Source: Sinorhizobium meliloti (lineage in GTDB: Bacteria; Pseudomonadota; Alphaproteobacteria; Rhizobiales; Rhizobiaceae). Taken from it: a stretch of 32,000 nucleotides of DNA. The position numbers were made by a program, and so were the translations under genes. The notes below the pieces were generated by a model. The model saw only the letters and a list, made by a program, of their open reading frames with translations. It was not told the origin of the DNA and ran no database searches. Below, piece after piece: positions 4,305 to 23,811 of this stretch; the first letter of the stretch is position 1, and every line of letters begins with the position of its first letter. The DNA is taken from NCBI RefSeq assembly GCF_017876815.1, contig NZ_JAGIOS010000001.1:810001-842000 (forward strand), in the 5' to 3' direction.

Positions 4305-7064
4305 CTACTGGTCGATCCTCACCCGGACGGTGAGCCGCGCGACCTGCCCCGAGGGCACGGTGCCATGCTCGGAGCGGATGGCACCCGTCGCGCCATCGGC
4401 CGGCTGAAGCGTCAGCTCCGCCTCAGTATCGCCGGTTGTCGCCGTGCCGGACGATCCGACATAGGTGGTGTAGGCCGGCGTTGCATCGTCGATTTGCAGC
4501 TCCGTCGCGTCCGCCGTGCCCATATTGGTCGCCGTGATGCGGTAGACGATGCATTCGCCCGGATTGGCCGCCTGCCCCGCCTGGGTGAAGCTGCCGTCGG
4601 CAGTTCCGTCGCATTTGGCGTCGACCGCCTGCTCCTTGACCACGACGACATTACCGGAAACGATGGTGACGGTTTCGGTGACCGTGTTGTTGCTCGGATT
4701 TTGATCCTCCACCGTTGCCTCGCCTGGCGCAGTGAGGGTGCTGTTCACGACGATTCTCGCGCTCTCGGAAAGTCCTCCCACGGCGCTGGCGGGTGCCTGG
4801 ACCCGCGAAAACAGCAGCACCCTGTCCCCGGGAGCGAGTTCCGTCTTGTCGAGCGCGGTCAAGATATTGGCAATGCTGGTCACCGTAGCGTCGGTGGAGT
4901 CCAGCACGCCGTTGCCGTTCGCGTCCACGCGAAGCGTTTCCGCGAAGCTCGGAAAATCAGGGTTGTAGCCGATGGGACCGTTGGTGATCGCGACGTTGCC
5001 GAGGTTCTCCAGCGTGTGGGTCATCACCACGACGCCGCCGGGCGCCGCCTGAGCGGTCTGGTCGGTGCGAATGGCGAGGTCGACGACCTGAACGACAGTG
5101 ACTTCGTCCAGTTTGGTATCGACGACCGCCGCACTGCTCGCCGAAGCGGCGCGGAAGTAAACATCCGTGTTGCCGGGCGCAGCCGTGTCCGGCGGGGTTA
5201 CGACGGCGGTGAACGTCGCGGACGCGCCCGGTGCGATCACGCCCGTATTGGTGACCGTGCCGTCGGCATTCCTGAACACCACCTGCCAGCCGGCCGGCAT
5301 GGAGCCGGGCGCGAAATTCGAGCCGCTGAAGGACAGATTGAAGCTGTCGGAAACCGAACGATTGTTTTTGACCACGAGGGTGAATTCGGCGGCCTCGCCC
5401 GGATTGGTTTTGACGGTCGTCCACGGGTCGCCGTTATCATTGGCGACATTGAGACCTGCCGCCAGTTCGCCCGCGTTCTGCAGATCGACGGTACCGCCGC
5501 CGACCTTACTTGCGATCCGCAGCCTTGTCTTGTTCAGCACCGCCGTGTTGCTGATGGAGGACGCCGTCATCGTCGCCTCCCAAGCTTGCGAACCCTCCTC
5601 GCGCGCCGCTCCGTCCGGCAAATTGGCATGCACAAGAAAGTTCGACACCGAGTTCGCGCCCAGCTGTATGTCCGGCCGGCCGTCGGAGTTCGTATCAAGG
5701 AGCGGCGTGCCCTCGGTGGTGGTAAAGCTGAACGTCGTGCCGGCGGGAAACGTGCCGGCGGGAAAACTGTTGCTCGGTTCGACGGAGAGATTGAACCTCT
5801 GCGTGGTGTTCGAGTGATTGGTAATGATCACGTCAAAAGGCACAGGGATACTTGAGGACAGATAGCCCTCTGTATAGGCAATGGTATCGTTCGCAGCGTT
5901 GTCGTCATCGGTGCTGGATGCCAGTCCGCCGTCGGTATAGTTCACGTCCGGCAGATCGCCACCGAATCGGCCTGCATAGGAAGGATCGGCCGCTCTATCC
6001 GCCAGCGTGACAGCCGTCGCCTGGCCGTCGTTGATGACGAGCCGCGCTTCGTTCGAGGTTTGCAGGTCGGTCTGGTCCGAGTCGATCGTACCGGTGTTGG
6101 AAATCGTGCCGGCTGCGCCAGTGGCGACCGTACCGACGAACTCGATATAGCCGCTCTTGCCGACAGGCACGGCGGACAGCGTCGCTTTCACCGTGCGGTC
6201 ATCAAGCGAATACGAATAGAAGATCTTGTGGCCCTGGCCGTTGGTGTGGTCTCCATCATCCTCGCGGGCGTCCGTCATCGCGCTGCCGTCGGACCACCGA
6301 CCCGTTCCCGCCACATATGTCAGTTCGCCTGGCAGCAGGTCCGTGATGATCACATCCGTCGCATCCGCTCCACCGGTATTGCTGTAGTTGAAGCGGACGC
6401 GCACGGTGTCGCCGGGGGTGAGCGAACCTGACCCGTCCCCGTCGTCGAGCAGGCTCATGGTCTTGGTGAACTCGAAAACGGCACCGGTCGTGACGGTCAC
6501 GGTATCCGTGTTGGTGTCGTTCGGCTGGTTCGGCTGGTTCGCCGTGCCCGCGGTGAAATTGCTCGCCGTTGTCAGCGTGCTCGCCGCGGTGATCTTGAAG
6601 GTGGGACTGCCGGTCGCCCCGGCCGCGACATTGACCTCTACGACGACGCAGGCGCTTTCGCCCGCGTTGAGCGAGCCGGTCTGGTCGATCGATGTCAGCG
6701 TATCGGGCACGCCGTCGCAATCGCCATCGGCATAGATGCCGACGAAGGAAAGGCCGGTACCGAAGTCGGAAGTCGTAAGGTCGTACCTGTCCGCCGCGTT
6801 ACCGACATTGGTGATGGTGTGCGGAAAGAGCACCTTGCCGCCGGCGACGGCGGATTTTGTCGTATCGGTCTCGATCTGAACGCCGGCGATGGTGTTGATC
6901 GTCGTCTGGACCAGGTTGGAGGTGACCGAAAAGGTCTGCCCGCCAGACTCGAAGGTCGCAACCGCCTGATTGCCGATGACGGTACCGGCCGCAGGCGGCG
7001 CCGCAAGCGCCGAAGACGCGAATGCCATTATACTCGCAGACGCAACCAAAAGATGCGCCGACAA
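4305..7064 (-). CDS. DUF11 (conserved repeat domain) secreted surface protein, about 919 aa
   Basis: This is the inner part of the 1097-aa track ORF 4305..7598. Repeated DUF11-like motifs are present (HTITNVGNAADRYDLT, MTHTLENLGNVAITNG, YRITATNMGTADATELQIDD). A signal-peptide-like MSAHLLVASASIMAFASSALA|APPAAG results if the TTG at 7064 is the start. The ATG at 7028 would truncate the signal peptide, and the 178 residues upstream look non-protein-like. The start is uncertain. Confidence 0.75.
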   Translation of the reverse strand: MSAHLLVASASIMAFASSALAAPPAAGTVIGNQAVATFESGGQTFSVTSNLVQTTINTIAGVQIETDTTKSAVAGGKVLFPHTITNVGNAADRYDLTTSDFGTGLSFVGIYADGDCDGVPDTLTSIDQTGSLNAGESACVVVEVNVAAGATGSPTFKITAASTLTTASNFTAGTANQPNQPNDTNTDTVTVTTGAVFEFTKTMSLLDDGDGSGSLTPGDTVRVRFNYSNTGGADATDVIITDLLPGELTYVAGTGRWSDGSAMTDAREDDGDHTNGQGHKIFYSYSLDDRTVKATLSAVPVGKSGYIEFVGTVATGAAGTISNTGTIDSDQTDLQTSNEARLVINDGQATAVTLADRAADPSYAGRFGGDLPDVNYTDGGLASSTDDDNAANDTIAYTEGYLSSSIPVPFDVIITNHSNTTQRFNLSVEPSNSFPAGTFPAGTTFSFTTTEGTPLLDTNSDGRPDIQLGANSVSNFLVHANLPDGAAREEGSQAWEATMTASSISNTAVLNKTRLRIASKVGGGTVDLQNAGELAAGLNVANDNGDPWTTVKTNPGEAAEFTLVVKNNRSVSDSFNLSFSGSNFAPGSMPAGWQVVFRNADGTVTNTGVIAPGASATFTAVVTPPDTAAPGNTDVYFRAASASSAAVVDTKLDEVTVVQVVDLAIRTDQTAQAAPGGVVVMTHTLENLGNVAITNGPIGYNPDFPSFAETLRVDANGNGVLDSTDATVTSIANILTALDKTELAPGDRVLLFSRVQAPASAVGGLSESARIVVNSTLTAPGEATVEDQNPSNNTVTETVTIVSGNVVVVKEQAVDAKCDGTADGSFTQAGQAANPGECIVYRITATNMGTADATELQIDDATPAYTTYVGSSGTATTGDTEAELTLQPADGATGAIRSEHGTVPSGQVARLTVRVRIDQ

Positions 7065-10395: not shown

Positions 10396-11091
10396 ATGAC
10401 GGCCAAACGCAGCGGCGCCCCGAGCAAACGGCCTCGACGGACAGGTGTATCGCCCCGGGTGCCGGAGGCGCGCAGTGAGCCGTCTCTCTCCCGGGAGCGC
10501 ATCGTGGCGACCGCGGTGGAACTGCTGGACGCCCAGGGAATAGACGGATTGACGATGCGTCGCCTGGCCGATCGCCTCGGCTCGGGCGTGATGAGCCTGT
10601 ATTGGCACGTCGACAACAAGGAGGATGTCTTTGATCTGGCGCTCGACTCGGTGCTCGAATACCGCGGACCGCCGCAATTGGTCGAGTCTCGAGATTGGCG
10701 CGGAAAAGTCGTTCATATGCTCGAGGACTGGCGCGCCGGCATGCTGCGCCATCCCTGGTCGGCATCGCTGCTGCCGCGCCGGGCACTCGGCCCGAACATC
10801 CTCAGCCGCCTGGAACTGCTGAGCAGGACGTTGTCCGGAGCCGGTGTAGCCGACGCAGATCTGAATGCCGCGATATGGTCGCTCTGGAACTATGTGATGG
10901 GCGCCACCATCACCCGGGCGAGCTTCGGCCTCTCGGACGAAGACAGGGCCGCGGCACAGCAGCGCCTCACACGTCTCAGCGAACACTATCCGACGATCGA
11001 ACGCTCCCGCCTGCTGCTGGACAACGATTGGGACGGCGCCTTCCGGAAAGGCCTCGACTTCCTGCTCGACGGCCTCGCTCCGAGACAATGA
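10396..11091 (+). CDS. TetR/AcrR family transcriptional regulator
   Basis: The ATG at 10396 is preceded by AAGGAAG. The N-terminal HTH reads SRERIVATAVELLDAQGIDGLTMRRLADRLGSGVMSLYWHVDNKEDV. The C-terminal region is typical of the TetR ligand domain. Confidence 0.85.
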   Translation: MTAKRSGAPSKRPRRTGVSPRVPEARSEPSLSRERIVATAVELLDAQGIDGLTMRRLADRLGSGVMSLYWHVDNKEDVFDLALDSVLEYRGPPQLVESRDWRGKVVHMLEDWRAGMLRHPWSASLLPRRALGPNILSRLELLSRTLSGAGVADADLNAAIWSLWNYVMGATITRASFGLSDEDRAAAQQRLTRLSEHYPTIERSRLLLDNDWDGAFRKGLDFLLDGLAPRQ

Positions 11092-11239
11092 GCGCTCGTC
11101 ATCTTCCTGACGAGACGGTGCCGGATCGGCTTAGCTGGAGCGGGATGAGGAAAAGTGTGTGCGGTTTTCCGCCCGCATCGTGATCTAGCCTAAACTAAGA
11201 CCAGGAACGTATCGGAGGACTGCAATCTCTCCTCACCCC

Positions 11240-11353
11240 TCATCTCTGTGCTTGTCACAGAGATCCAGCAGCGCCGCGTCTGCGGTGTGGGGAAATGTTC
11301 TTTCAGCCCAAGGACTTGGTCTCGCTGGATCCCTGTGACGAGCACAGGGATGA
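11240..11353. repeat. Palindromic intergenic mosaic element (REP/RIME-like): two roughly 30-nt inverted arms, each itself containing a hairpin
   Basis: The left arm is TCATCTCTGTGCTTGTCACAGAGATCCAGC (11240-11269). The right arm is GCTGGATCCCTGTGACGAGCACAGGGATGA (11324-11353). The arms are near-perfect reverse complements. Internal stems are CTCTGTG/CACAGAG and CCCTGTG/CACAGGG. Confidence 0.6.
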
Positions 11354-11413
11354 GGAGATCAAAGACACATCCCGGCGACGAATGGCCCGCATCCGGATGG
11401 GGCAATAACGAAA

Positions 11414-11431
11414 CCATTTGAAAGGAAATGG
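11414..11431 (-). terminator. Weak hairpin downstream of the RES gene
   Basis: On the minus strand, CCATTT-CCTTTC-AAATGG is followed by TTTCGTTATTG. The stem is only 6 bp and AT-rich. Confidence 0.25.
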
Positions 11432-11486
11432 CGCGCCGGACGAGATGAAACTGGGCACTCTTATGTGATTGTAATTTCGATATAAT

Positions 11487-12470
11487 TTATGGAAGTGTAC
11501 GAACTCCGATCAGGGAGGCGAAGGTCGCGACATCGTCCGCAGGTGACAGAAGAACCAAGTTTGCCCCGGATGGGTGCTTGGTCGAACCGTAGCTGATCGC
11601 ATCGAATCCAGCATAGATAGCACAATCGGCAACGAACCGTGTGAAAACGTACTCGCGCCTTACCCACCCTTCTCCAGTACGTGGCGCTGAGCATAGCGAT
11701 GACCGTGCCAGACACTGAATGAGGATTTCGGCGGGCGTTTCTGCTTCGGGCTTGGGTTGAAGATCGAGAATTTTCAGCGAGGTGTTCAGTGATATCTCTG
11801 CGACATGAAAGCGATCTCCCGGCGTAGCGATCTCAGCGAACGCTGTCTTCTCCGCCGCAGCGAGATAGATCATCCCGTGGCCGGCGTGATTGTAGCGACC
11901 CTCCGCCACAAGATGAGCTGGAGGCGCTCCAAAATCAGTAAGTGCCGGAGACGGCAGATTCGCGGCCTTGCGCGCACGGAACTGAGTGCCCACGACCGAC
12001 TGTGGAAGAGCGGCAACACCGAGCGCTACGATTACATCTAGGACCTCACGAGCGAGCGCGTGCGTGAGCAGCAAGAAAGGGGCGCGTGACGCCAGGCCAG
12101 CAATTTCATCAAGTGCATCTGAGAATTCGGGAGGAACATCGAATGGATGTTCGTAAATCCAGAACTCGCCGTCCAGAACCGAGCCGCAATTCGGACAGGT
12201 GAGCGATTTTGAGAAACGCTCGATTTCCTCGGGATAGAAATCATCCTGAACGCGGCTATTTCGCAAAAAATCGTCAATAGTCATGTACCCGTATTGAAGC
12301 TCGACATCATGGGAAACGGTACCTGGCCACCGAGCGTTGAATTCGTCGTGGCATTTGCCGCAGCATAAGATTCGTGACGAGAAAAAAGACTCAAGGTCCC
12401 GATCAAAATAATCTTGAAAAATGAGGACGCGCTCTTCCTCTGTATTTTCTTCGAAGTACTTGCTTCTCAC
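11487..12470 (-). CDS. RES domain-containing protein (NAD-targeting toxin family) with a Cys4 zinc-ribbon-like N-terminal extension
   Basis: The GTG start at 12470 is preceded by GAAGGG. The C-terminal half carries the RES signature: FRARK, GRYNHAGHGMIYLAAAEKTAFAE, and FDAISYGSTKHPSGANLVLL. The N-terminal roughly 150 aa has CCGKC (about aa 36-40) and CPNC (about aa 92-95). Confidence 0.8.
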   Translation of the reverse strand: MRSKYFEENTEEERVLIFQDYFDRDLESFFSSRILCCGKCHDEFNARWPGTVSHDVELQYGYMTIDDFLRNSRVQDDFYPEEIERFSKSLTCPNCGSVLDGEFWIYEHPFDVPPEFSDALDEIAGLASRAPFLLLTHALAREVLDVIVALGVAALPQSVVGTQFRARKAANLPSPALTDFGAPPAHLVAEGRYNHAGHGMIYLAAAEKTAFAEIATPGDRFHVAEISLNTSLKILDLQPKPEAETPAEILIQCLARSSLCSAPRTGEGWVRREYVFTRFVADCAIYAGFDAISYGSTKHPSGANLVLLSPADDVATFASLIGVRTLP

Positions 12471-12636
12471 TGGGAACCCTTCAAGACCGTGTTGAACCGC
12501 TCTACAAGCCGGAAGTGATGGTCCTGCGCCAGCCTATCCAAGTTGATTTTCTTCCATTTCACTGCTGGCAATTCTGCGGCTCCAGGCAGCCCGAGCAGGT
12601 TTGAAAGCCACCTAAAAGACCCAGTCTAACTTAGCA

Positions 12637-12676
12637 AAAGGGGCGAAGGTCAAACCAAAGGGGCCAGCCTCAAACC
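12637..12676. repeat. Two abutting 20-nt direct repeats in the S8-RES spacer
   Basis: AAAGGGGCGAAGGTCAAACC (12637-12656) is immediately followed by AAAGGGGCCAGCCTCAAACC (12657-12676). The ends are identical (AAAGGGGC ... TCAAACC) and the centre differs. Confidence 0.7.
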
Positions 12677-12693
12677 AGAATCGACGGGGATGT

Positions 12694-15276
12694 TTACGCT
12701 CCTGCCGCGATACCAGCGCGCACTGGCACACCAAGTCGTTCCCGTACCTGCTCATAGACAGGAATACCGGTGTCGATGGCTACTTCAAAACTCACTGCCA
12801 ATGCGTAAGGAACAGGATCAGCAAGAGTCCCTGCAGCAGCGCGGCACGAAACTCTCAGCAGAAGATTCCCATCATCTACAAAGACCCGCGCTGCCTCGCC
12901 TGTCCGGCGTTCATGGCAAACCGTTCCGCGGACAACGGCCTTATCAGTCGGTTGATAGGAATCACGTTCATCCGCCATCCAGTATTTGTCGTCACTTGCC
13001 GCGCTCACATCAAGAGCTGCCATGCGATAACCCTGATGGCGTGGATTGACCGGCGAAAACCAGGCGAGCGTGGTGGTCAATCCGCGAAGCGCGCGCACCC
13101 CATCCAGACCATCGGGAAGTGGTATCCGGTACAACACCGCACTGTCGGCATCGATCGTCCCGGTCCCCAGCAGAGTCGCCCGGTTCTCAGCACAATCCAG
13201 GACCCGTTGAATGTCAGGCACACCGTACCCGAGTAGTCGCGTGATATCGTCCCGCCGCGCAAGATGTGATCCTTGGCCTTGCGGGCCGAAGAAGCCGTCC
13301 AGCATGGCGCCCTTGTTGCTCCATTGCGCGCCATGAACCATCAAGGCCTTCAGAAGCAGAGGGAGTTCGTTAGTGGTCACGTCGGCATGATGGGAGCCGC
13401 CGTCTCCGTCGAGCAGGACATCATGAATGCGGTGTGCGGCACGCGTCGCGAGCGCCGTAGCTGCGCTCGTCCCCCATGTGAAATCTTCGAAGCTGGTCCC
13501 GCCGGCCGCAGAAGGCCGCGCCACCTTGAGTCCGAAATGCTGCGCACCTGCACGTACCGGCATCACAACAAGTTCACCCCCCGTAGCCGCCATCTGCACG
13601 GGCGCTCGGCCACCGCTGAATAGAAGCTCCGGCTTTACGACCTTCTTGAAACCCAGCCCCATCGCCGAGATTATGTTGGGAACACCCTCAGCGGTGAAAG
13701 GGTCGATCCGCCCGGCAGGAAAGCCGCCGTTGAACGCCGACCCCGCGTGAGCGGCCCCGATTGTCAGGGCGTTCATCGACTCGGCAGGCGACAACAGCGT
13801 GCGCTGGCTTTTCTGTGCATTGAGGGAAGCAAAAACAGCTTTTTCGCGATCCTCGGCGTTGGCTGCCTCGAAGTCCGTCCAGTTCGCATAGCCTTCTACT
13901 TTCAGGCGGTCAGTTATGTTTCCGGCGCTCACGAGAAACAGCACACGATAGCGCCAGCTCAAGTAGTCAAGCAAGCGACCAAGGGGACTCATGATGCGGG
14001 CAAACGGCCGTTTCTCATCTGCAAGAGAAAGATTGATCAACACGACTTGCGGAGCAGCTGCGGGCTCTTGGCCTTCTCCCACTTTTATGCGGCGCACGGC
14101 TTGGTGAATAACATCGACGAGCAGGCGATCGTCCGGTGTGCGCTCCCCGCCCTGCGTGGGCCGGAACACAGGCCTAACGTAGAGCGGTCGGGGCAGTGGC
14201 GGCTCACCGTGGTTCAGATCGCCGTGGATAATCAGCGACGCCATCTCGGTGCCGTGTTCGCGCTGCGCCACGGGGTAAGTTTCGGCAAGACCTTCCGGAT
14301 CGTCGACTCTCAGGCGGCCTGCGAGTCGTGCATGATTTTCCACAGGAAGGCCGTCAAGCAGTGCGGCGATCGGTTCATCGCTTACAAACACCGGAGCTGC
14401 GCCCGCGCCAGGACCGTTCTCGCCCTCGATCTCACTGGCCGGCGATCGTGCTACGGACTGGGGGCGCAGGAACATTACGTCATCAGCGCGGGCGAGGCCG
14501 ATATCGGGATTATCGAGAAGCGTTCTGACTGAAGCGGCAGGAAGATCGACGAGCGCAGCATCGTAGCGAATCTCGCTGACCACGGCATGATCGACGACGG
14601 CACCTCCAGCGGACTCTATATCCGCGGTGAGCCGACCGATCGCGCCTGCGCGACGTTCGGCATTCTCGTGATACCAGAGCTCTACCTCAAAACGCACCGG
14701 CGCGTCGGGTGCGCGCTCCAAGTCTTCCGCGAACGCTTTGATCGTCTCGTCAGGGATACGGTCCTGAGGCCCCCAAGGACGCACATCGATCAGTTGTGAA
14801 AACAATTCACGCCACGGTCCGCGCCCGGTGGGCATCCGCTCATTGTTCTTGTAGCGTCTCCAGAGGCTCAGCAGTTCCCGAAGCGCCTGAACGTCGGGCA
14901 TAGCGAGGTAAATGCGTCCGGCGAGCGACTTTCCAGGATCATCCTGATCGTAAAAATCGCCGCTTGGCGCGAAATCATCCTCGTAGTCGCCAAGATATTC
15001 GAGGCCGATGGCTCGTGCCTGTTCGTAGAAGTCCTTTAGCGAGCCTTCCACCTCAAAAACGATAGCGCGCTCGGGCGCGATTGAGGCCGGATCATTGCGA
15101 AGCGCCAGAATTTGCTGGGGGTCTGCAGCCACGCGATCGAGCCGCTCAAAGCGGGGATCAATGCGAGCGCGCTGGCGGTCCCGCGTAGGGCGGCTAATGT
15201 CCGCTCCGCCTCCAGCCCTACCTCGTAAGGTGAAGGGCTCAGGCTGAGGGAGATTAAGGAGCGGCCGATCCGGCAT
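12694..15276 (-). CDS. S8 (subtilisin-like) serine peptidase, about 860 aa, with a roughly 300-aa N-terminal domain of unknown function; IetS-like
   Basis: Subtilase catalytic motifs appear in order: Asp in IAALLDGLP (about aa 309), His in EHGTEMASLI (about 342), oxyanion Asn in LVSAGN (about 454) and Ser in WGTSAATALATRAA (about 605). The ATG at 15276 (GTG at 15279) lies inside the 3' end of the AAA gene, giving a 23-nt overlap. Confidence 0.85.
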   Translation of the reverse strand: MPDRPLLNLPQPEPFTLRGRAGGGADISRPTRDRQRARIDPRFERLDRVAADPQQILALRNDPASIAPERAIVFEVEGSLKDFYEQARAIGLEYLGDYEDDFAPSGDFYDQDDPGKSLAGRIYLAMPDVQALRELLSLWRRYKNNERMPTGRGPWRELFSQLIDVRPWGPQDRIPDETIKAFAEDLERAPDAPVRFEVELWYHENAERRAGAIGRLTADIESAGGAVVDHAVVSEIRYDAALVDLPAASVRTLLDNPDIGLARADDVMFLRPQSVARSPASEIEGENGPGAGAAPVFVSDEPIAALLDGLPVENHARLAGRLRVDDPEGLAETYPVAQREHGTEMASLIIHGDLNHGEPPLPRPLYVRPVFRPTQGGERTPDDRLLVDVIHQAVRRIKVGEGQEPAAAPQVVLINLSLADEKRPFARIMSPLGRLLDYLSWRYRVLFLVSAGNITDRLKVEGYANWTDFEAANAEDREKAVFASLNAQKSQRTLLSPAESMNALTIGAAHAGSAFNGGFPAGRIDPFTAEGVPNIISAMGLGFKKVVKPELLFSGGRAPVQMAATGGELVVMPVRAGAQHFGLKVARPSAAGGTSFEDFTWGTSAATALATRAAHRIHDVLLDGDGGSHHADVTTNELPLLLKALMVHGAQWSNKGAMLDGFFGPQGQGSHLARRDDITRLLGYGVPDIQRVLDCAENRATLLGTGTIDADSAVLYRIPLPDGLDGVRALRGLTTTLAWFSPVNPRHQGYRMAALDVSAASDDKYWMADERDSYQPTDKAVVRGTVCHERRTGEAARVFVDDGNLLLRVSCRAAAGTLADPVPYALAVSFEVAIDTGIPVYEQVRERLGVPVRAGIAAGA

Positions 15277-16279
15277 CACTCTCGTCCTTACTGATACCCG
15301 GCGCTGCGCGCGCGCGTCCCATCCACAACTTCATCTGCTCACGGATAATATCAACCACGGCCCGGCCATCGCCTGAAAGTATCCGCCGACGCAGAATGTC
15401 TGTGAAGAACTCTTCCGCTTCGCTGTAACTGACGCGGCCCAAAGCCTTTGCGATCTGCTCCGTACCCAAGCCAAGTTTTATCTCGGCTCTTGCAGAGAGG
15501 CTGGATAGAAAAGCCGCTAACTGCTTCTGTGTCGGCGCGGGCAGTGTCAACCGTAGCTGGAACCGCCGCCAAACCGCACGATCGAGCAGCTCGGCATGGT
15601 TTGTGGCCGCGAGCACGACGACATAGCTAGGCAAGTCATCGATCTGCATAAGTAGCGAAGTGACTACGCGTTTGATTTCACCAGTTTCATGGATGTCGCC
15701 TCGCTCTTTGCCAACAGCATCAAACTCGTCAAAGAACAATACGCAAGGCGTCGTCCGCGCGTAGTCGAATACGCGCTTGAGGCGCGTCGCTGTTTCCCCC
15801 AGAAAGCTACCGATCATGGCCTCATAGCGGACTACAAAAAAGGGCACGGCGAGGCTTTCGGCGATCGCCTCGGCCAATGTTGTCTTACCGTTGCCGGGCG
15901 GTCCGACAAGCAGGATGCGGTGGCGGGGCTCTAAGGAATGCGAGCGCAGCAACGAAGCGCGCTGCTGCTCCTCAATCAGCTGAGTCGCTGCAAGGCGCGT
16001 GAGATCAGGGAGGACAAGTTCGTCCAGTCGCCGTCGCGGGATCATCTCCGCTATGAATTCGCGCGCGCCGCGACCCGAGGCTTCTGCCGACACGCGGGCG
16101 ATGTTTGATTGGCCGTTCATGGGCGGCGTCTCCACTACTTTTTCCAGACGGTCGGCCAGGACATTGTGCTGCTTGGCCCGCTCTTCGGCGACGATAGCCT
16201 CAACGGTGCGCTTCACCGTCCGGGTGTCACCTGACACACCAGCCTTTACAAGATTTATGAGAAGGTCGCTGCGGGCCAT
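15254..16279 (-). CDS. Classical AAA+ ATPase (CDC48/FtsH-like fold), about 341 aa; IetA-like
   Basis: Walker A is LLVGPPGNGKTTLA and Walker B is VLFFDEFDAVG. Sensor-1 is VVLAATNHAE, and the Arg-finger region is AVWRRFQLRL. The ATG at 16279 is preceded by a perfect AGGAGG at 7-nt spacing. The track ORF start at 16312 is a TTG further upstream. Confidence 0.85.
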   Translation of the reverse strand: MARSDLLINLVKAGVSGDTRTVKRTVEAIVAEERAKQHNVLADRLEKVVETPPMNGQSNIARVSAEASGRGAREFIAEMIPRRRLDELVLPDLTRLAATQLIEEQQRASLLRSHSLEPRHRILLVGPPGNGKTTLAEAIAESLAVPFFVVRYEAMIGSFLGETATRLKRVFDYARTTPCVLFFDEFDAVGKERGDIHETGEIKRVVTSLLMQIDDLPSYVVVLAATNHAELLDRAVWRRFQLRLTLPAPTQKQLAAFLSSLSARAEIKLGLGTEQIAKALGRVSYSEAEEFFTDILRRRILSGDGRAVVDIIREQMKLWMGRARAAPGISKDESDAGSAAP

Positions 16280-16283
16280 ACTG

Positions 16284-16556
16284 CTACCTCCTGCGCCTGC
16301 CACGACGGTCAACTAGCTCGGTCTCGGCGATATCGACGCCGACTGCCTGCAAGCCGCGGAGAACAACCGTACGCATTGACTCTCCACGTTCAGCACAGAG
16401 AAGAGCCACCTGTCGTCTCACGCTGCTGGGAACCATAACCTGAAGCGGCACTTCCTTTTCTGCTGGCACTTCACCAGATGGCGCGACCCTTCGCTCTCCC
16501 TTGGGCGGGGTGCGCTTTGTCATAACCATGGCGGACGCCTCATGAGAACTCGTCAT
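16284..16556 (-). CDS. Small ribbon-helix-helix (CopG/ParG-like) DNA-binding protein, 90 aa
   Basis: The C-terminal half VPLQVMVPSSVRRQVALLCAERGESMRTVVLRGLQAVG fits a beta-strand/helix/helix pattern. The stop is 4 nt before the AAA ATG, and AGGA lies upstream of the ATG at 16556. Confidence 0.55.
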   Translation of the reverse strand: MTSSHEASAMVMTKRTPPKGERRVAPSGEVPAEKEVPLQVMVPSSVRRQVALLCAERGESMRTVVLRGLQAVGVDIAETELVDRRGRRRR

Positions 16557-16568
16557 GAAATCCTAATA

Positions 16569-16582
16569 TCATGAATTCATGA
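16569..16582. promoter_or_regulatory. Perfect 14-bp palindrome TCATGAATTCATGA upstream of the RHH gene (candidate operator)
   Basis: TCATGAATTCATGA at 16569-16582 is self-complementary. A third TCATGA half-site at 16553-16558 overlaps the RHH start codon. Confidence 0.4.
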
Positions 16583-16695
16583 CGAATCTCCCTTTTCAGT
16601 CGCCGGACGAGGGAGGAAGTTGTGGATAGATTTATGGGCGCTAATATGTAGGCAGGCGGTGATCGGTGGGGCAGCGCCCTCACGCAATGGTGCCG

Positions 16696-19600
16696 TCAAG
16701 CATTGGCGCCAAACTCACCCCTCATGGCCTGCTGCCAAATATGGGCGTATACGTTGCTAGCCACCAGCTTCTTCTCCTCAGCCGTGAATGGAGGTGTCGG
16801 CAAGCTGGCAAACACGTTGTCCAGGATGAACACCTCGATATCGGCTTTCGTCTGTTCTTTTTCCCAGAAGCGATCGAGTTTCGCGAGCCGCGCCTTGATT
16901 GAGGCAAGAAGTTCCCGGCTCGCCTGCTTCACCCTTTCGCGCGCCGTCTTGTCCAGCTCGTCCTTGAGAAGCAGGTCAAACAGCGCCAGTTCATCCTCGC
17001 GAAGACCTTCGCGCGTGGCGCGCTTCTGCTCCTCGTCCAAGCTGGCTACGAGTTCGATAAGGCGCCTGAACGTCTCTTCGATGGTGGTCCGGTCCTTCTC
17101 CCGGTTATAGTCGGCGACGATTTCCTCGTACTTGATCTGATAGTCCATACGCATTGGATTACGCGCCATCATCTCGGCGAGCTTCTCCTCAACTATGTCT
17201 CTGATATCCTGTAGGGTCGTCGCCTTACGCCGGACCTTCTTCGCAAATTCATCGCGAAGACGTTCCAGATCGATCTTGCTGAGATCGAACGTAAGCCCCT
17301 CGGCCTGATCGTCCCCCGCAGATTGTGTCGCGATGGCTGCATTGACAATACGATGCAGCTCTTTGAGGAGTTCTGTTACATCAGCGGTGTCGCGTCGCTC
17401 GATCAGCTTCTTGTAGATTGCTTCGATGTTGTCGTGCCGCTCCGCATAGGCGTATGCAGAGGGCTCCATAAGCAGTGCCTTAAAGCGGATGAAGACCTGC
17501 CGCGCCATGATCTCAAATCGCCGCTTGGCATCATCGCTCGAATATACGGCCTCGACCGCATCAGCGAGCCCCTTGATCCGGACAAACCCTTTTGCACCAA
17601 GCAGCGCAACCGGATCGAAGCCGAGGCCGCGGAGATGTGCTTCGGTCGCTTCAATGGCCTCGATGAGGGCCTGCACACGTTCCTCGATCGGCGCAATGAT
17701 TTCTTCCCCGCCTGTGCCGTCATCGCCAAGTGCATACTGGGCGAGCGCGGCCCGCAAACTGGCCAGCATGCCGTTGTAGTCGACGATCAAACCAAAATCC
17801 TTGCCAGGATAGACACGGTTGGCTCGCGCAATCGCCTGCATCAGCGTATGCGCCTTCATCGGTTTGTCGATATAAAGTGTTGAAAGGCATTCCACGTCGA
17901 AACCGGTCAGCCACATGGCGCAAACGATGGCGACGCGGAAGGGATGCTTGGGGTTCTTAAAGGCCGTTTCGACATCAACCCGCTCGCCTGCTTCCCCTTC
18001 AAACCCTCTTTTCATCAGGGCGCGATGGGGAATGATGTCAAAGCCCCATTTCTTGAAGTCGGCGACTTCGTTCTGAGCCTCGCTGATTATGATTTCGACG
18101 ATTGTCTCATCTAGCCATCTGGCCTGCGCCTCAAGTTTTTGGGCCTTTTCCGCAAGTGCGGCACGGACTGTTTTGTCGACAGCAGCCGCCGCCTCTGCCC
18201 TTTTGGTCTCACCCTCTTTCCGCACCTGAATGGCCTTCGCCTTCCAGTGGGGAACGATGCGCTGGTACATCCGGGCGCAAGTGATTTTGTCAATGCAGAC
18301 GAACAGCGACTTCCCTGATTCCCAACGTGTCGCGCAATGCTCGACAAAGTCGTGCGCGATTTTTTCAAGCCGCTCGTCGGCGGTGATGATCTCGTAATCC
18401 TTGCCAAGCAGCTTATCCAGGAGTGCGGCCTGATCTGGGTCGAGCTCAGCCTCCTCGATCTTCGCCGCGATCCGGTCGTTTAGATCGACCCTTGCGACGC
18501 CCAGTTTCTCACCTCGGTTCTCATAGACGAGCTTGACGGTCGCCCCGTCTTCTTCCGACCGCTTGAAATCATAGCGCGAGACATAGTCGCCGAAGATACG
18601 CTTGGTGATCTCATCCTGTTTGAACAGCGGCGTGCCCGTAAAGCCGATGAAAGCAGCGTTCGGCAAAGCGAGGCGCATGTTACGCGCAAGTCGTCCGGCC
18701 TGTGTCCTATGTGCCTCGTCAGAGATGACGATGATGTCGTCGCGCTCGCTGTAGGGCTCTTTCGGGTTCACATCCTGATTGAATTTATGGATCAGGCTGA
18801 AGACGTAGCGATGGTTTTCCTTCAGCAGACGCTGGAGGTCCGTGCCCGACGCGGCCCGCGGCGTTTCGTTGCTCGCGACATCGCAGCCGACGAAGGTCTT
18901 GTAAATCTGGCTATCCAGATCGTTGCGGTCGGTCATAAGCAGGAAGGTAAAATTGCCCGGCACCTTCCGGCGCACTTTTTCAGCAAAGAACGCCATGGAA
19001 TAAGACTTGCCGCTACCCTGGGTATGCCAGAACACGCCAAGCCGCCCGAGGTCCGGATGTGCCCGCTCGATGATATTCACGGGCCCTTCCGGGATGAATG
19101 ACGGAAGGGCTGGCGCAGCTTCCTTCTCCATCGTCGCAAGCCGTTTCTGATCGGCAATCGCCCGGTTCTCTAACGGCAACTCAATCACACGATGCCGTAG
19201 GCGTTCCTCACGGGGGAACTCGCGCTTTAACTCCTCCTGGTAGGCAACCGATGCAACGGCGCGGTTGACCCCCAGCACTTGATGGTTGCGCGCTACCACC
19301 TTGCGCGTCGCGCCGGCCTTGCTCTCGTCGAACAGGATGAAGTTCTCTATGAAGTCCAGAAGCCGATCATGTGTCAGCATGCCATTCAGCAGCACCTCGG
19401 CGTCAACATTACCTTTATCCGTCTCGTCGAGCCGCTTCCACTCCGCAAAATGATCCCATTCACTGGTGATCGAACCGTAGCGCGCGCGGTCACCATTGCT
19501 GACAATCAAAAAAGCGTTGTGGTGAAAGGCATGCGCGACAACATTCTCATCCATGTAATCACGCAGGTTGCCATCAAACCCGGCGCGGATGTTTTTGTAG

Positions 19601-20121
19601 ACCGCCTTCAGCTCGATGAAGACGACCGGCAGCCCGTTGACAAAGCATACAAGATCGGCGCGGCGATTGTAGTTCGGCGTCCGCAAACCGGTCAGTTTCA
19701 GCTCTCGTACCGCAAGAAAACGGTTGCTGCCCGGCGCGTTGTCGAAGTCAATTACGCGCGCGCGGGCATCGCGCACACGCCCCATGGCATCCCGATAGTG
19801 AACCGGAACGCCATTGCGGATCAGCCGCGTAAACTCCTGATTGTGCTGCACCATCGAGCGGCTGAAATCATGGACCGTAAGCGCCCGCACCGCATCATCA
19901 ATGGCTGACGGCGGCAGCTCAGGATTAAGCCGCACAAGCGCGGCGCGCAGATCACGCGTAAGGACCGCCTCACTTGTACTGGCACGTCCAAGCGTCCCTC
20001 CCGGCCCGAACGTTTCATCATTCCAGGCATAGATACTATCCCAGCCAAGCGCCGTCTCAAGGTGGACGGCGAAAGTCGCCTGTACCAGCCGATCCTCGCT
20101 GTTGATGCCTGTGACCGCCAT
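16696..20121 (-). CDS. hsdR: Type I restriction endonuclease subunit R
   Basis: 1141 aa. The PD-(D/E)xK-like motif is RADLVCFVNGLPVVFIELK. Helicase motif I is HTQGSGKSYSM and the DEAH box is VISDEAHRTQ. It has a long helical C-terminal region and follows hsdS by 24 nt. Confidence 0.95.
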   Translation of the reverse strand: MAVTGINSEDRLVQATFAVHLETALGWDSIYAWNDETFGPGGTLGRASTSEAVLTRDLRAALVRLNPELPPSAIDDAVRALTVHDFSRSMVQHNQEFTRLIRNGVPVHYRDAMGRVRDARARVIDFDNAPGSNRFLAVRELKLTGLRTPNYNRRADLVCFVNGLPVVFIELKAVYKNIRAGFDGNLRDYMDENVVAHAFHHNAFLIVSNGDRARYGSITSEWDHFAEWKRLDETDKGNVDAEVLLNGMLTHDRLLDFIENFILFDESKAGATRKVVARNHQVLGVNRAVASVAYQEELKREFPREERLRHRVIELPLENRAIADQKRLATMEKEAAPALPSFIPEGPVNIIERAHPDLGRLGVFWHTQGSGKSYSMAFFAEKVRRKVPGNFTFLLMTDRNDLDSQIYKTFVGCDVASNETPRAASGTDLQRLLKENHRYVFSLIHKFNQDVNPKEPYSERDDIIVISDEAHRTQAGRLARNMRLALPNAAFIGFTGTPLFKQDEITKRIFGDYVSRYDFKRSEEDGATVKLVYENRGEKLGVARVDLNDRIAAKIEEAELDPDQAALLDKLLGKDYEIITADERLEKIAHDFVEHCATRWESGKSLFVCIDKITCARMYQRIVPHWKAKAIQVRKEGETKRAEAAAAVDKTVRAALAEKAQKLEAQARWLDETIVEIIISEAQNEVADFKKWGFDIIPHRALMKRGFEGEAGERVDVETAFKNPKHPFRVAIVCAMWLTGFDVECLSTLYIDKPMKAHTLMQAIARANRVYPGKDFGLIVDYNGMLASLRAALAQYALGDDGTGGEEIIAPIEERVQALIEAIEATEAHLRGLGFDPVALLGAKGFVRIKGLADAVEAVYSSDDAKRRFEIMARQVFIRFKALLMEPSAYAYAERHDNIEAIYKKLIERRDTADVTELLKELHRIVNAAIATQSAGDDQAEGLTFDLSKIDLERLRDEFAKKVRRKATTLQDIRDIVEEKLAEMMARNPMRMDYQIKYEEIVADYNREKDRTTIEETFRRLIELVASLDEEQKRATREGLREDELALFDLLLKDELDKTARERVKQASRELLASIKARLAKLDRFWEKEQTKADIEVFILDNVFASLPTPPFTAEEKKLVASNVYAHIWQQAMRGEFGANA

Positions 20122-20145
20122 GCTACTAAGCCCTCCGCTCCGACA

Positions 20146-21294
20146 TCATACCGCGATCTCCCCGTTCATTAGACGAGGCATCAAAATGTCACGAGCTTGA
20201 GCGAGTTTATCAATCTGCCGCAGCAACGTTTGCATTTGCTTGGCAGCGTTTCCTGCAAAATCACCAAACAGCGTTTGTAGCGGGCGCGGAGGAGTTGTTA
20301 CACGAACCTCGGCAATCCGGTTCTTCGAAAGTTCTTTCTGATTAGTTGCCCCTTCGCCCATTCCCTCGAAGACCGGCTGCAGCTCAAGGAGCGCGTATCC
20401 AAACCAGAACGGATGAACATCACTATTCGGTCTAGCGACAGTTAGGTGAGAGTCAAATGTCATGGCCACCGGTTCGAACCAGCATTGAGCCACACGCCCC
20501 AGCGTCCCTGTACCCGTCGAATTTATGAGAACGTCCAGGTAGTTGAGCGCCTTTTCGACCTTATACTCTTTTCGTTGCCGTCGGGCTGGAGCGGTTGAAA
20601 GGAGTCGATCGCGAACGCATTTCTGGCTCAATACGATTGAATCACCATCGTCGTCGTATGTCGGCGAAATTCCTCGTCCTAAGAAGCAGCACGCATCGCC
20701 TATTCTTTTTCGTTCCCACCCTTTGGGGATACCCTCTATGATCTCAATATGCTCGTGACCGGGGTAGCGGAATCGACTAAACCACTCAAGGTAAAGCATC
20801 CGCACTGACTCATCCAACAATGCAATTCGCCGTCTGTTGTTCTCGATCAGATTGTCGTAAGCAGCAAGGATGGAAGCGATCTTGTCTTGGACTGGATGAT
20901 CTGCCAAACGGATTGGAAGACCATGAATGTGATTTCGATTGAGCGTGGGATTAGCCCCACCGACATTAAATCGTTCCAAGCCCAAGCACTTCAAAGCATA
21001 GTATACGAAACGTGCGTTGTTGCCGTTTAGTGATTTGCTCCAAAGCGTCGTGTCATGAGGCCAATAGTCGCCCGCGCTGTAGTGGACGGAGCCGAGCGTG
21101 CCTTTTCGGCCAATGACAACGCCGGGGCCGGCAGCCATGGCTTCGTTGTGCCAACTGCTCGGCCCAGATGACGAGATAACCGGTACATCTCCCTCCTTCT
21201 GATGATCCTTGGTTATGTCGAACCCACGTTGCAGGTAGACGAGGTCTTCAAGAATGGCAGGCTGCCAGTGCTTTGCGCCCAGGTATGATGTCAT
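20146..21294 (-). CDS. hsdS: Type I restriction-modification specificity subunit S
   Basis: 382 aa with two target-recognition halves. They are separated by the conserved helix ILAAYDNLIENNRRRIALLDESVRMLYLEWF, and the protein ends LLRQIDKLAQARDILMPRLMNGEI. Its ATG overlaps the hsdM stop (ATGA, 21291-21294). Confidence 0.9.
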   Translation of the reverse strand: MTSYLGAKHWQPAILEDLVYLQRGFDITKDHQKEGDVPVISSSGPSSWHNEAMAAGPGVVIGRKGTLGSVHYSAGDYWPHDTTLWSKSLNGNNARFVYYALKCLGLERFNVGGANPTLNRNHIHGLPIRLADHPVQDKIASILAAYDNLIENNRRRIALLDESVRMLYLEWFSRFRYPGHEHIEIIEGIPKGWERKRIGDACCFLGRGISPTYDDDGDSIVLSQKCVRDRLLSTAPARRQRKEYKVEKALNYLDVLINSTGTGTLGRVAQCWFEPVAMTFDSHLTVARPNSDVHPFWFGYALLELQPVFEGMGEGATNQKELSKNRIAEVRVTTPPRPLQTLFGDFAGNAAKQMQTLLRQIDKLAQARDILMPRLMNGEIAV

Positions 21295-23390
21295 GCGCCC
21301 AACTCCTGGAAGTTGCGCGCGATCTGCGCGGCGAGCTCCACCGCCTCTTCGTTTAGGCCTTTTAGGTCAATGTGGATCGCGCGGAGCGACTCTTCAAAAT
21401 CAAAATCTTCATCCTGCTCGACGGGCGCAACACCGACGTATCGCCCTGGCGTCAAACTCCAATCATAATCTTTGATCGCGGCACGATCGACCAGCTTGAC
21501 CAGCCCTTCGACATCACGCAGCGCGGCGTCAGGGAAGCGCTCTTGAAGCCAGTCAGCTTGCTTCACAAAGTAACGCGCCATCCGCAGCGCCTCGACGGCG
21601 TTCGCGCGTGCATCTTCCAGTCGCTTGCGCGTGCGGCTGATGTCAGCGTTCGACCATTTGCCGGAGTCTTTCGCTTCGAGCTCCTTCAAGCTGATGTCGA
21701 TCACACGGCCTGCGAGCTTCGCCGCAAGGTCGATCTGCTTCGTCAGATCGCGGCAGCTTTCCGCTATCGGATGCAGTGCCGCCCGCGCTGCGTTCAGCCC
21801 GGCATTGTCGCGACCCGCCTTCCAGCTCTTTTCCTGTTTCGCAGGCTCGGCGACGAACTGCTCGATATCTGCCGTCAGTGTAGACTGCGCGCTGGTTAGC
21901 TCCCCCCAGGGCTCCGCCAGCGGATCATCCTTGCGCCTGGTTCTGGCAAAAGGCTCGATCAACTCGATGAGTTTTCCAAGGACGTCCTCGAACGTGTCAA
22001 GGGGCGCTGCCGCCGCCTCGCCATCAGCGATGGCACGCGCCAGGTAGGATTCAACGAGCCTCAAGAAGCGATCCTGTTGACCGCGATAAAGCCAGATGAT
22101 CGCGGCAATGTTCTTTTGTTGCTCGGGACTAAAATCGACAACCGAACGCGACACCTTATTGTAGATGCCGCGCGCATCGAGCATCAGCACATGATCGCGG
22201 CGTGCGGCGTCCTTTTCCTTTGCCCGGTCGAAAAACCACAGCTGGCACGGCACCGTGCGCGTGTAAAAGAAGTTGCCGCGAATATCGATCATTACATCAA
22301 CGGCGCCAGTCTCGACCAGCTTTTGGCGTACCGTCGCCTCATCCCGTCCCGCGCTTGATGCCTGCGAGGACATCACCACGCCGGCGCGGCCATTTTCATT
22401 CAGGTAGCTGTAAAAATACGAAAGCCAGAGATAGTTGGCGTTCGACACTTTCTTGCCTTTGTTCACGCCCGGCAGGCCAAATGGCAGGCGCTTGTCACCC
22501 GTCACCTTATCGGCGTCGACCTCATCAACGTTGAACGGAGGATTGGCCATGACGAAGTCGCACTTGCCGGCGAGCTCATGCGGGTCCTTGTAATAGGTGA
22601 TAGCTTCGTTTCCGGCCCGGATCGTGCCTTGAAGGCCATGAACCGCCAGGTTGATCTGCGCGATCTTCGCGGTCGTTTCATTCTTCTCATGGCCATAGAA
22701 GGTGACACGCTTCATTGTGTCCTGGCCCGCGTCCTCAATAAAATGGCTCGACTGAACGAACATGCCGCCCGAGCCGCAAGCCGGATCAAACACGATCCCA
22801 TGGTCCGGCTCGATCACGTTGACGATGGTTTGGACAATGGAAGGCGGCGTGAAGAACTCGCCGTTATCGTGCGCGCCCTGCTTGGAGAATTCAGCGAGGA
22901 AGTATTCGTAGATGCGGCCGAACACGTCGCCAGAGGCTTTTCGCAGACCTTCGGAATCAAACATACGCAGCATGCGTTCGAGCAGATCGCTCTCGAAGCG
23001 CTGGTAGTCTTTCGGCAGCTGACCCGCGAGCGGCGGAAAGGCTGCCTCGATAACATCCATGGCGGCCGTGAGCGCCGCACCGAGATTGCCGTCCTTTGGC
23101 ATTTTCAGGAGTACGTCAAAGCGCGCAGCCTCGGGCAGCATGAGCGCGCGGCGACGCGTGAAATCTGCCTCGATCAGCGGACGATCCGGCATCTGGCCGG
23201 CGGCCTTGTCCGCCTCGATCGCCGCTTTTGCCTCATAATACCGATTGGTGGCGTGACGCAGAAAAATGAGCCCCATGATCGGCATGAAATACTCGTTTGA
23301 CGCCAATCCCGAGTTGGCGCGCAGGTCGTCAGCGATCTTCCAAAGCTCGGATTCGAACTTTTCAAGATTGTGAAAGTGATCTGCGCTCAT
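21291..23390 (-). CDS. hsdM: Type I restriction-modification N6-adenine DNA methyltransferase subunit M (long form with about 230-aa C-terminal helical extension)
   Basis: The N-terminal HsdM motif is ELWKIADDLRANSGL. The AdoMet motif is VFDPACGSGGMF and the catalytic motif is VMANPPFNV. I prefer the ATG at 23390 (MSADHF...). The upstream ATG at 23498 would overlap the HTH gene by 29 nt and cannot be excluded. Confidence 0.9.
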   Translation of the reverse strand: MSADHFHNLEKFESELWKIADDLRANSGLASNEYFMPIMGLIFLRHATNRYYEAKAAIEADKAAGQMPDRPLIEADFTRRRALMLPEAARFDVLLKMPKDGNLGAALTAAMDVIEAAFPPLAGQLPKDYQRFESDLLERMLRMFDSEGLRKASGDVFGRIYEYFLAEFSKQGAHDNGEFFTPPSIVQTIVNVIEPDHGIVFDPACGSGGMFVQSSHFIEDAGQDTMKRVTFYGHEKNETTAKIAQINLAVHGLQGTIRAGNEAITYYKDPHELAGKCDFVMANPPFNVDEVDADKVTGDKRLPFGLPGVNKGKKVSNANYLWLSYFYSYLNENGRAGVVMSSQASSAGRDEATVRQKLVETGAVDVMIDIRGNFFYTRTVPCQLWFFDRAKEKDAARRDHVLMLDARGIYNKVSRSVVDFSPEQQKNIAAIIWLYRGQQDRFLRLVESYLARAIADGEAAAAPLDTFEDVLGKLIELIEPFARTRRKDDPLAEPWGELTSAQSTLTADIEQFVAEPAKQEKSWKAGRDNAGLNAARAALHPIAESCRDLTKQIDLAAKLAGRVIDISLKELEAKDSGKWSNADISRTRKRLEDARANAVEALRMARYFVKQADWLQERFPDAALRDVEGLVKLVDRAAIKDYDWSLTPGRYVGVAPVEQDEDFDFEESLRAIHIDLKGLNEEAVELAAQIARNFQELGA

Positions 23391-23469
23391 TTTGCTTATG
23401 CCTTTGAGTCCCTGGCGTTCGTCGCGAACCTCAGCACGCTGTCCGGCTTCCGCCGGCATGCGCTCTGCT

Positions 23470-23682
23470 TCACTGCTTTTTTTCTTTAGGTTCGGCATCG
23501 TCGCCCTTTCCGTGTTTTGCGGATTCTCGTCTTATCCAACTGTCGATTTCGCCGCTGTCGAAACGCCATGAGCCTCCGACCTTAAAGCCCGGAATCTCCC
23601 CCTTAGCGGCGAGCTTGTAAGCCGTCTTCTCATTGATTTTGAGAAGGGCGGCCACCTCGCGCACCGTGAGTATCTCGCTCAT
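23470..23682 (-). CDS. Excisionase-family (MerR-superfamily) helix-turn-helix DNA-binding protein, 70 aa
   Basis: From ATG 23682 the translation is MSEILTVREVAALLKINEKTAYKLAAKGEIPGFKVGGSWRFDSGEIDSWI. This is the classic short HTH_17 / excisionase pattern. It is the first gene of the hsdMSR string. Confidence 0.75.
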   Translation of the reverse strand: MSEILTVREVAALLKINEKTAYKLAAKGEIPGFKVGGSWRFDSGEIDSWIRRESAKHGKGDDAEPKEKKQ

Positions 23683-23717
23683 GGCTTTGGCGCCCCGATA
23701 CAATCCCGGCGAGTATA

Positions 23718-23750: not shown

Positions 23751-23811
23751 CAGATTTACCTAGATTATGAAAATTATGAAGTTGGCGAAGTCTAGACTCG
23801 CAAGCTGGATA

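Follow-up and report, generated by a model that had tools for sequence, protein, structure and literature searches.

A predicted ribbon-helix-helix gene with a conserved putative operator precedes a divergent ietA-ietS pair in Sinorhizobium meliloti

A 32,000-nucleotide (nt) stretch of Sinorhizobium meliloti DNA (contig NZ_JAGIOS010000001.1, positions 810,001 to 842,000; hereafter the window) contained three tightly packed, co-directional open reading frames (ORFs) on the minus strand, in the order small gene, AAA+ ATPase gene and S8 protease gene. The two large genes were assigned to ietA and ietS of IetAS, a pair that Gao et al. reportedly described in 2020 as an anti-phage system, and the small gene is predicted to encode a ribbon-helix-helix (RHH) protein. 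All three ORFs lay where a preliminary description of this DNA had placed them, and its statements on the sequence were accurate in every detail. The features of the cassette were as follows:

16540..16582, minus strand: putative operator/promoter with four TCATGA hexamers
16284..16556, minus strand: small RHH-type gene, probable autorepressor (90 amino acids (aa) from ATG 16556; 81 aa from ATG 16529)
15254..16279, minus strand: ietA, classic-clade AAA+ ATPase, antitoxin/regulator of IetS by homology (341 aa from ATG)
12694..15276, minus strand: ietS, S8 subtilase, toxin/effector by homology (860 aa from ATG)

Concerning the start codons, the NCBI record of the identical S. meliloti protein uses ATG 16529 for the small gene, and ATG 16556 falls within the third TCATGA box; ATG 16529 is the likelier start. 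Alternative starts were also present for ietA (an in-frame TTG upstream, at 16312) and for ietS (GTG at 15279). The small ORF ended in ...AGGAGGTAG (AGG AGG TAG), followed by 4 nt (CAGT) and then by the ietA ATG, with AGGAGG sitting 7 nt ahead of that ATG, so the short gap and the AGGAGG provided for the ATPase gene were found as first reported. The ietA stop codon (TAA, 15256-15254) lay 23 nt into ietS, counted from the ietS ATG at 15276, again as first reported, and the same 23-nt overlap was present in three related loci (L001, L006 and L009).

The preliminary description had called the cassette IetAS-like and proposed a hidden Markov model (HMM) comparison with the IetA and IetS profiles. 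This reading holds because the PADLOC profiles of both families matched the two large proteins over their full length. The ATPase matched IetA (PDLC04232) with an E of 2.9e-146 and 485 bits (residues 12-336 of the 352-aa ORF, profile positions 1-322 of 330), and the protease matched IetS (PDLC04233) with an E of 4.9e-302 and 1002 bits (residues 2-855, profile positions 1-850 of 855). The ietA gene was immediately 5' of ietS on the same strand, which is the gene order that PADLOC requires, and the cassette is an intact IetAS system by the PADLOC definition.

IetA possessed intact Walker A (GPPGNGKT, 126-133) and Walker B (VLFFDE, 180-185) motifs, a pore loop (SFLGE, 158-162), a sensor-1 motif (AATN, 224-227, with N227), and RRF at 238-240 in the second region of homology; the located residues bear out the earlier claim that the Walker A/B, sensor-1 and Arg-finger motifs are intact. 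The Pfam AAA domain matched at 7.5e-31. Among the sequences of solved structures, the nearest were the p97/Cdc48 D2 rings (2e-45), and this kinship, together with the SFLGE pore loop, suggests that IetA is a protein-remodelling ATPase.

IetS possessed the full Asp/His/Asn/Ser set that had been attributed to it (D308, H341, N453 and S604), which was invariant in 7 and in 41 relatives, and the catalytic site needed for the predicted protease activity is intact. The Pfam Peptidase_S8 model spanned residues 314-665, leaving ~190 C-terminal residues outside it as well as the ~300 N-terminal residues that had been noted ahead of the subtilase domain. No sequence relative of IetS was found among solved structures at E <= 0.001. 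An AlphaFold2 model based on 41 sequences reached a predicted local distance difference test score (pLDDT) of 83.6 and a predicted template modelling score of 0.88. In this model, the N-terminal region was of the alpha/beta type, with a beta-alpha-beta-beta-alpha run at 72-143 and more beta/alpha units up to ~280; it was followed by the subtilase core and by an eight-strand all-beta C-terminal domain (~699-832). The top Foldseek matches of the model in the PDB were pro-forms or multidomain subtilases (ProN-Tk-SP at 2e-17, KP-43, PCSK9 and Kex2). From the order of the elements and the long alignments, the N-terminal region may be prodomain-like.

Two other observations concerned ietS. A metagenomic protein of 1220 aa (P0089), considered as a possible IetA-IetS fusion, was an IetS homologue (69% identity) with a C-terminal extension of ~350 aa without obvious relation to IetA; the fusion was rejected, and the extension may be a read-through fusion with a downstream gene. 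ARAGORN called a tRNA-Pyl (anticodon CTA) at 14584-14676 on the plus strand, within the bounds of ietS but on the other strand; this call is almost certainly spurious.

The two large proteins missed the equivalog thresholds of NCBIfam (IteA_antiphage, 222.8 bits against a cut-off of 510; IteS_antiphage, 60.8 bits against a cut-off of 900). Identity to the founding pair of plasmid pTiC58, placed at L094 1374-2360 (ietA) and 2364-4874 (ietS), amounted to 37% in the case of IetA; for IetS it was 22% and confined to the catalytic and C-terminal part. Because of the scores below the NCBIfam cut-offs and the 22% IetS identity, the window copy is classed, by sequence comparison, as a distant, divergent IetAS subtype and not as the experimentally tested lineage. 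The pTiC58 pair had the same gene order and domain types as that of the window, and both are rhizobial and located on mobile DNA. However, the pTiC58 genes are 3 nt apart without overlap, whereas those of the window overlap by 23 nt, and no RHH ORF was present upstream of the pTiC58 ietA, where an AbiEi-like gene and a 250-nt spacer were found instead. The product of this gene (DUF6088; L094 531-1124, corresponding to 97030-97623 of the pTiC58 record), just upstream of ietA, matched PADLOC AbiEi at 3.6e-65, and no AbiEii gene was annotated between it and ietA.

The small ORF is a genuine gene under purifying selection. The protein search yielded homologues in 55 clusters, for which no Pfam domains are recorded, and an exhaustive HMM search with the profile of its family (family 1) yielded 379 representative clusters. 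Downstream of ~35 variable N-terminal residues, the family-1 core was conserved (EVPLQVMVPxxVRRQVALxxAERGESxRTVVLRGLxxxGVxIxxxELVDRRGRRR). Across 15 loci, synonymous sites were saturated, dN (nonsynonymous divergence) ranged from 0.15 to 0.33, and the median ratio of nonsynonymous to synonymous divergence (dN/dS) was ~0.11 where computable. All four small-protein homologues that were looked up were encoded directly 5' of an AAA and Peptidase_S8 pair, and the flanks of these loci were unrelated (UvrD/PDDEXK, a Type ISP enzyme, DndB/Mrr, HATPase_c_3, or urease genes). On plasmid p2 of Paracoccus albus, the small gene was present before ietA-ietS and absent from the gene table. One might object that the small ORF arose by chance or is in decay, and that the region is merely the 5' leader of ietA, as the lack of a domain match for the window protein and the missing annotation on this plasmid would allow. 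Such an explanation is scarcely credible, and effectively already refuted, in view of the 55 and 379 clusters, the dN/dS of ~0.11 with saturated synonymous sites, the conserved 3' junction with ietA and the confident fold prediction over the core.

Taken as a whole, the evidence supports the assignment of the small protein to the RHH type well, with no single line being decisive. AlphaFold2, run with the family alignment, predicted a disordered N-terminus, an extended segment (36-43) and two helices (44-57 and 61-71), which is the order of elements in RHH proteins, with a block-mean pLDDT of 87-92 over residues 41-80. Among 66 distant family-1 relatives, weak matches (E 1e-2 to 9e-5) were obtained to Antitox_RHH (13), FitA-like_RHH (7), RHH_10 (4), RHH_5 (3) and RHH_1 (2). 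With a broader profile (A6), the best PDB sequence match was the CopG-family RHH protein 9kkd, aligned strand-to-strand in register at a weak E of 0.1; profiles A1 and A3 produced no useful match among PDB sequences. The members of a second family found in the same position (family 2, see below) showed weak but consistent matches to RHH_1 (13 of 23) and CopG_antitoxin (11 of 23). Eleven RHH-profile matches in P0192, a 2246-aa repeat protein, were discarded as spurious, being due to an 'LLCAESGE' motif.

The distribution of the small gene was surveyed among relatives of the window cassette. A scan with an IetS alignment, using one genome per GTDB species, yielded at least 577 relatives, of which the best 80 loci were kept (loci are numbered with the prefix L throughout), and a protein search for relatives yielded 1650 clusters at E <= 1e-20. 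In all scanned loci with available upstream sequence, ietA was directly 5' of ietS. The small-gene survey set consisted of the 73 loci in which the 5' end of ietA was complete and the upstream sequence long enough. Family 1 was present in nine of them, those with an IetS at least ~58% identical to that of the window, while a second, analogous small protein (family 2; consensus RVPVTVRxPExxxxxIDxxxxxRxVPxSRNxWLLEAAxEKL) occupied the same position in 35. Altogether, 44 of the 73 loci had a family-1 or family-2 gene whose end lay between -55 and +13 nt relative to the ietA start; in most cases the two genes overlapped by 10 or 13 nt. No RHH-like ORF was detected upstream of ietA in pTiC58, in the Agrobacterium plasmid pAt15-1187, or in a Rhizobium plasmid clade at 38% identity. 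Within one large IetAS branch, the small gene is a common accessory (~60% of sampled loci) without being universal. Since ~40% of the related loci and pTiC58 lack an RHH gene, the RHH protein is better regarded as an accessory regulatory layer than as an essential partner.

Some individual loci deserve mention. A Nitrospiraceae IetAS (L012, 2500-3010), with an IetS 69% identical to that of the window, had no RHH gene; the upstream DNA there was AT-rich and unrelated, which suggests that the regulator was lost or replaced. Four loci (L034, L038, L045 and L080) possessed degenerate-looking family-2-like frames upstream of ietA (e.g. '...VRVPAPLPWRVGRCIHMRTVPILCNYG...'), which may reflect either the decay of RHH genes or frameshifts introduced by sequencing. 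A conserved third gene downstream of ietS in the 38%-identity plasmid clade (L002 and L003) was also considered and rejected, as the two downstream proteins were unrelated.

Upstream of the small gene, four of the 13 TCATGA hexamers of the window were located inside 43 base pairs (bp) at 16540-16582 (starts at 16540, 16553, 16569 and 16577). Two of these boxes formed a perfect 14-bp palindrome, TCATGAATTCATGA (16569-16582), which was unique in the window against 0.03 expected. Although their upstream regions were otherwise dissimilar, 12 of 15 distinct family-1 loci shared a pair of TCATGA boxes ~90-150 nt ahead of the conserved core, with a spacing of either 8 bp (TCATGANNTCATGA; window, L006, L007, L008, L013, L019 and L048) or 16 bp (TCATGATCTTATAAAATCATGA; L001, L014, L015, L017 and L055). 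In L017, the boxes were within and just after a predicted TTGCCT-17-TAAAAT promoter; a consensus promoter scan gave a candidate in that locus only, and none in L007. Family-2 loci had their own TGATGTCACTA-type repeats at the start codon, in direct or inverted orientation, with ATGTCA present in 23 of 30 upstream regions. Each of the two families comes with a distinct conserved repeat in the promoter of its gene, which is the signature of autoregulating DNA-binding proteins. From the fold, the position and the conserved putative operator we infer DNA binding by the small protein, which is probably an autorepressor acting on the TCATGA boxes.

Two further observations on these repeats were made. 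In the family-2 loci (L026-L087), TGATGTCACTA occurred ~60 nt upstream of the small gene, either in tandem with an 11-bp period (e.g. L037 and L079) or as an inverted pair (L033), and overlapped the start codon. In the window, a second TCATGA pair, 11 bp apart, was present at 27599-27615 inside the relaxase ORF (26283-28004), and could be due to chance or provide the RHH protein with a secondary site.

Standard lists of anti-phage systems include IetAS, which is annotated as two genes and whose mechanism is unsolved. What is new here is a third component, a small predicted DNA-binding repressor that is left out of the current two-gene description, and none of the papers searched names IetAS together with ribbon-helix-helix. 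The preliminary description had stated that, to its knowledge, neither the RHH nor a neighbouring RES gene is part of the described two-gene system. For the RHH gene, this stood, and its linkage to ietA-ietS is now extended by the four look-ups, the 44 of 73 loci and the evidence of selection; the RES gene turned out to be only a neighbour. Compared to IetAS in its two-gene definition (Gao et al. 2020; PADLOC/DefenseFinder), the window cassette has the same order of AAA+ then S8 genes, the matching profiles and the intact residues, and differs by the RHH gene in front, with its own putative operator, and by the 23-nt gene overlap. The absence of the small gene from the gene table of one plasmid reveals an annotation gap, and detection tools do not count the gene. 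The putative promoter/operator offers a directly testable handle on regulation. Cloned fragments beginning at ietA would be without the native control, with toxicity or misexpression as possible results. A modest follow-up appears worthwhile because a regulatory component and a testable operator are added to a mechanistically unsolved defence system.

Related arrangements have been described elsewhere. The ietHAS variant (Liu-DS4; PMC13069673) is likewise an IetAS with a third gene of regulatory, antitoxin-like influence, but that gene encodes an SNF2 helicase essential for defence, whereas the third gene of the window encodes a predicted DNA-binding protein of ~80-90 aa that is probably dispensable. 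The Mycoplasma TA132/133 pair (PMC8562856) combines an AAA antitoxin and an S8 toxin as here and is chromosomal and horizontally acquired, but it is a two-gene system of a distant lineage with no RHH reported, whereas the window cassette has three genes. A match in logic was found in omega-epsilon-zeta operons, which combine regulator, antitoxin and toxin in one operon. There, omega is an RHH repressor separate from the antitoxin. The likeness lies in the stand-alone RHH control predicted here and is not one of homology, as the Pfam matches of the window cassette were limited to AAA and Peptidase_S8, with no Zeta_toxin domain or epsilon antitoxin.

Published work on homologues bears on how the cassette may act. 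According to PMC13069673, which cites Yamamoto 2009, the earliest account of IetAS was of a plasmid-borne toxin-antitoxin pair, the toxin being IetS and the antitoxin IetA. Protease activity was needed for defence and an ietA mutant could not be constructed; the same source gives the anti-phage mechanism as unknown and describes the helicase-bearing variant ietHAS (PMC13069673). The Mycoplasma AAA/S8 pair is a functional toxin-antitoxin system (PMC8562856), and a Bacillus homologue acts by abortive infection, its toxicity being triggered by the phage SPbeta gene yosG (10.1101/2022.08.27.505566). The earlier remark that the mechanism is still unknown is therefore too broad for the logic of the system, as toxin-antitoxin roles and abortive infection have been published.

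With the directly observed gene structure, motifs, profile membership and conservation of the third gene and its putative operator as a starting point, the window cassette is probably an RHH-autoregulated, translationally coupled three-gene toxin-antitoxin or abortive-infection cassette in which IetA restrains IetS. In the proposed sequence of events, the RHH protein would bind the TCATGA boxes overlapping its own promoter and hold the operon at a low, buffered level, as its fold, its position and the conserved operator suggest. The three genes would be expressed from one mRNA and coupled in translation, through the 4-nt gap with its ribosome-binding site and then the 23-nt overlap seen in the sequence, and a tight coupling would in turn fix the IetA:IetS ratio. 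IetA, whose pore loop is intact, would act as a Cdc48-like AAA+ hexamer and spend ATP to keep IetS harmless; the antitoxin role of IetA is established in homologues of pTiC58, Mycoplasma and E. coli (ietHAS) according to the accounts in PMC13069673 and PMC8562856. A phage trigger or the loss of the element would lift this restraint, and the freed IetS would cleave cellular or phage proteins, so that growth stops and the infection aborts, by analogy with the Bacillus homologue. For the clade of the window copy, we infer from these relatives both the neutralisation of IetS by IetA and an anti-phage activity, and autorepression by the RHH protein likewise remains a prediction.

Several observations weigh against this reading, beginning with the small protein itself. 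The window protein had no Pfam match even at an E of 10 and reached no Pfam, NCBIfam or PADLOC threshold. Foldseek comparison of its monomer model with the PDB gave nothing meaningful, a result that was expected because a 55-residue core of this kind folds as a dimer and is preceded by a disordered N-terminus. The strand regions of the family-1 and family-2 profiles aligned with an E of 0.0011 but a probability of only 20%. A consensus scan detected no sigma-70-like promoter in the region upstream of the window's own small gene, and 29 of the 73 related loci had no recognisable RHH gene, so that the latter is dispensable for the core function. The clade is also far from the IetAS systems with phenotypes, as judged by the NCBIfam scores and the 22% IetS identity to pTiC58, and we know of no IetAS for which there is an account of how the ATPase neutralises the protease.

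The dispensability of the RHH gene also bears on a different division of labour, in which the RHH protein would be the labile true antitoxin, or a co-antitoxin, contacting IetS or IetA through its ELVDRRGRRR tail, and IetA would be a chaperone or unfoldase controlling the RHH protein, so that the latter would be more than a transcription factor, namely a structural partner in a tripartite toxin/antitoxin/chaperone-like module. The weak Pfam matches of the relatives were indeed to antitoxin-type RHH families (Antitox_RHH, FitA-like_RHH and CopG_antitoxin), the tail of ~15 residues after helix 2 was strongly conserved, and a chaperone-like third component has been proposed for ietHAS (PMC13069673). 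Such a module nevertheless seems quite unlikely, given that elsewhere the IetA-IetS pair suffices for a working toxin-antitoxin or defence system, that pTiC58 and 29 of the 73 related loci lack any RHH gene, and that the tail is short, missing in family 2 and conserved in a broader family too. The Arg-rich tail had also been considered as an interaction or cleavage motif specific to IetAS, an idea weakened by the conservation of the DRR tail in the broader family from the exhaustive search.

Within the preferred reading of an RHH-controlled IetA-IetS cassette, a more specific mechanism can be proposed as a speculation that we hold to be doubtful. IetS would be zymogen-like, in the style of proprotein convertases, with prodomain-like alpha/beta modules in its ~300-aa N-terminal region; the Cdc48-like IetA ring would use ATP-driven remodelling to maintain latency, with the expression ratio set by the RHH repressor, and a disturbance by phage (transcription shut-off or a trigger protein) would release the protease. 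If true, RHH-IetA-IetS would be a protease switch that regulates itself and is gated by an unfoldase, and no such defence logic is known to have been described in mechanistic terms. The confident IetS model supplies testable domain boundaries for how an AAA+ ATPase restrains a subtilase.

The cassette was placed, as described earlier, between a type I restriction-modification (R-M) system and a RES gene, in a region with the following neighbouring features:

20121..16696: hsdR, upstream neighbour, with hsdS and hsdM (type I R-M)
11487..12470, minus strand: RES-domain gene, downstream neighbour (327 aa, RES at 176-311)
28004..26283: MobA/VirD2 relaxase gene, island gene within 10 kb

The guanine-cytosine (GC) content was 0.52-0.61 across roughly 11-25 kb, versus 0.63-0.68 at the 5' end of the window. 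Beside the type I R-M system and the relaxase, the stretch at ~11000-30000, likewise of lower GC content (0.52-0.61) than the 5' end of the window, also carried DUF2971, DUF7678 and a SprT-like gene, and neither an integrase nor a tRNA boundary could be located in the window. Overall, the region looks like an integrated mobilisable, horizontally acquired island. The flanks of relatives were sampled qualitatively, with no background set, by taking the nearest large ORFs on the flanks of 57 related loci (114 ORFs). They included four type I methyltransferases, two PtuA, two AriA, three PDC-S68, Eco57I- and MmeI-type enzymes, three resolvases, two TrwC relaxases, two ArdC and one Tn3 transposase, a neighbourhood of defence and mobile elements. 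In addition, 71 plasmid records encoded relatives of the window IetS.

This mobile setting raises the possibility that the cassette serves mainly for addiction, i.e. that it stabilises the island by post-segregational killing, as IetAS does for pTiC58, with no meaningful phage defence in its host. The founding IetAS is described as a plasmid-stability system in the account cited above, and the 71 plasmid records, the relaxase gene and lower GC content (11-25 kb) of the window, and the relaxase, resolvase and Tn3 genes beside relatives would all be in keeping with such a role. As the principal function, addiction is unlikely: R-M, Septu (PtuA) and PARIS (AriA) components flanked relatives, the type I R-M system adjoins the window cassette, and tested IetAS relatives do defend. 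Moreover, addiction and defence roles are not mutually exclusive.

The RES gene was rejected as a component of the system, since different genes followed ietS in every related locus inspected; being absent from all of these, it is considered an unrelated neighbour. No Xre/DUF2384 partner was found beside it, and no co-directional ORF of at least 50 aa fitted the 223-nt gap upstream. The protein matched the RES domain at 1.5e-16, scored 16.7 against a cut-off of 110 for Res_ParT_toxin and fell outside the RES-Xre grouping. Its N-terminal region of ~175 aa contained CxxC...CxxC motifs, and it may be a stand-alone or fused variant of RES toxins.

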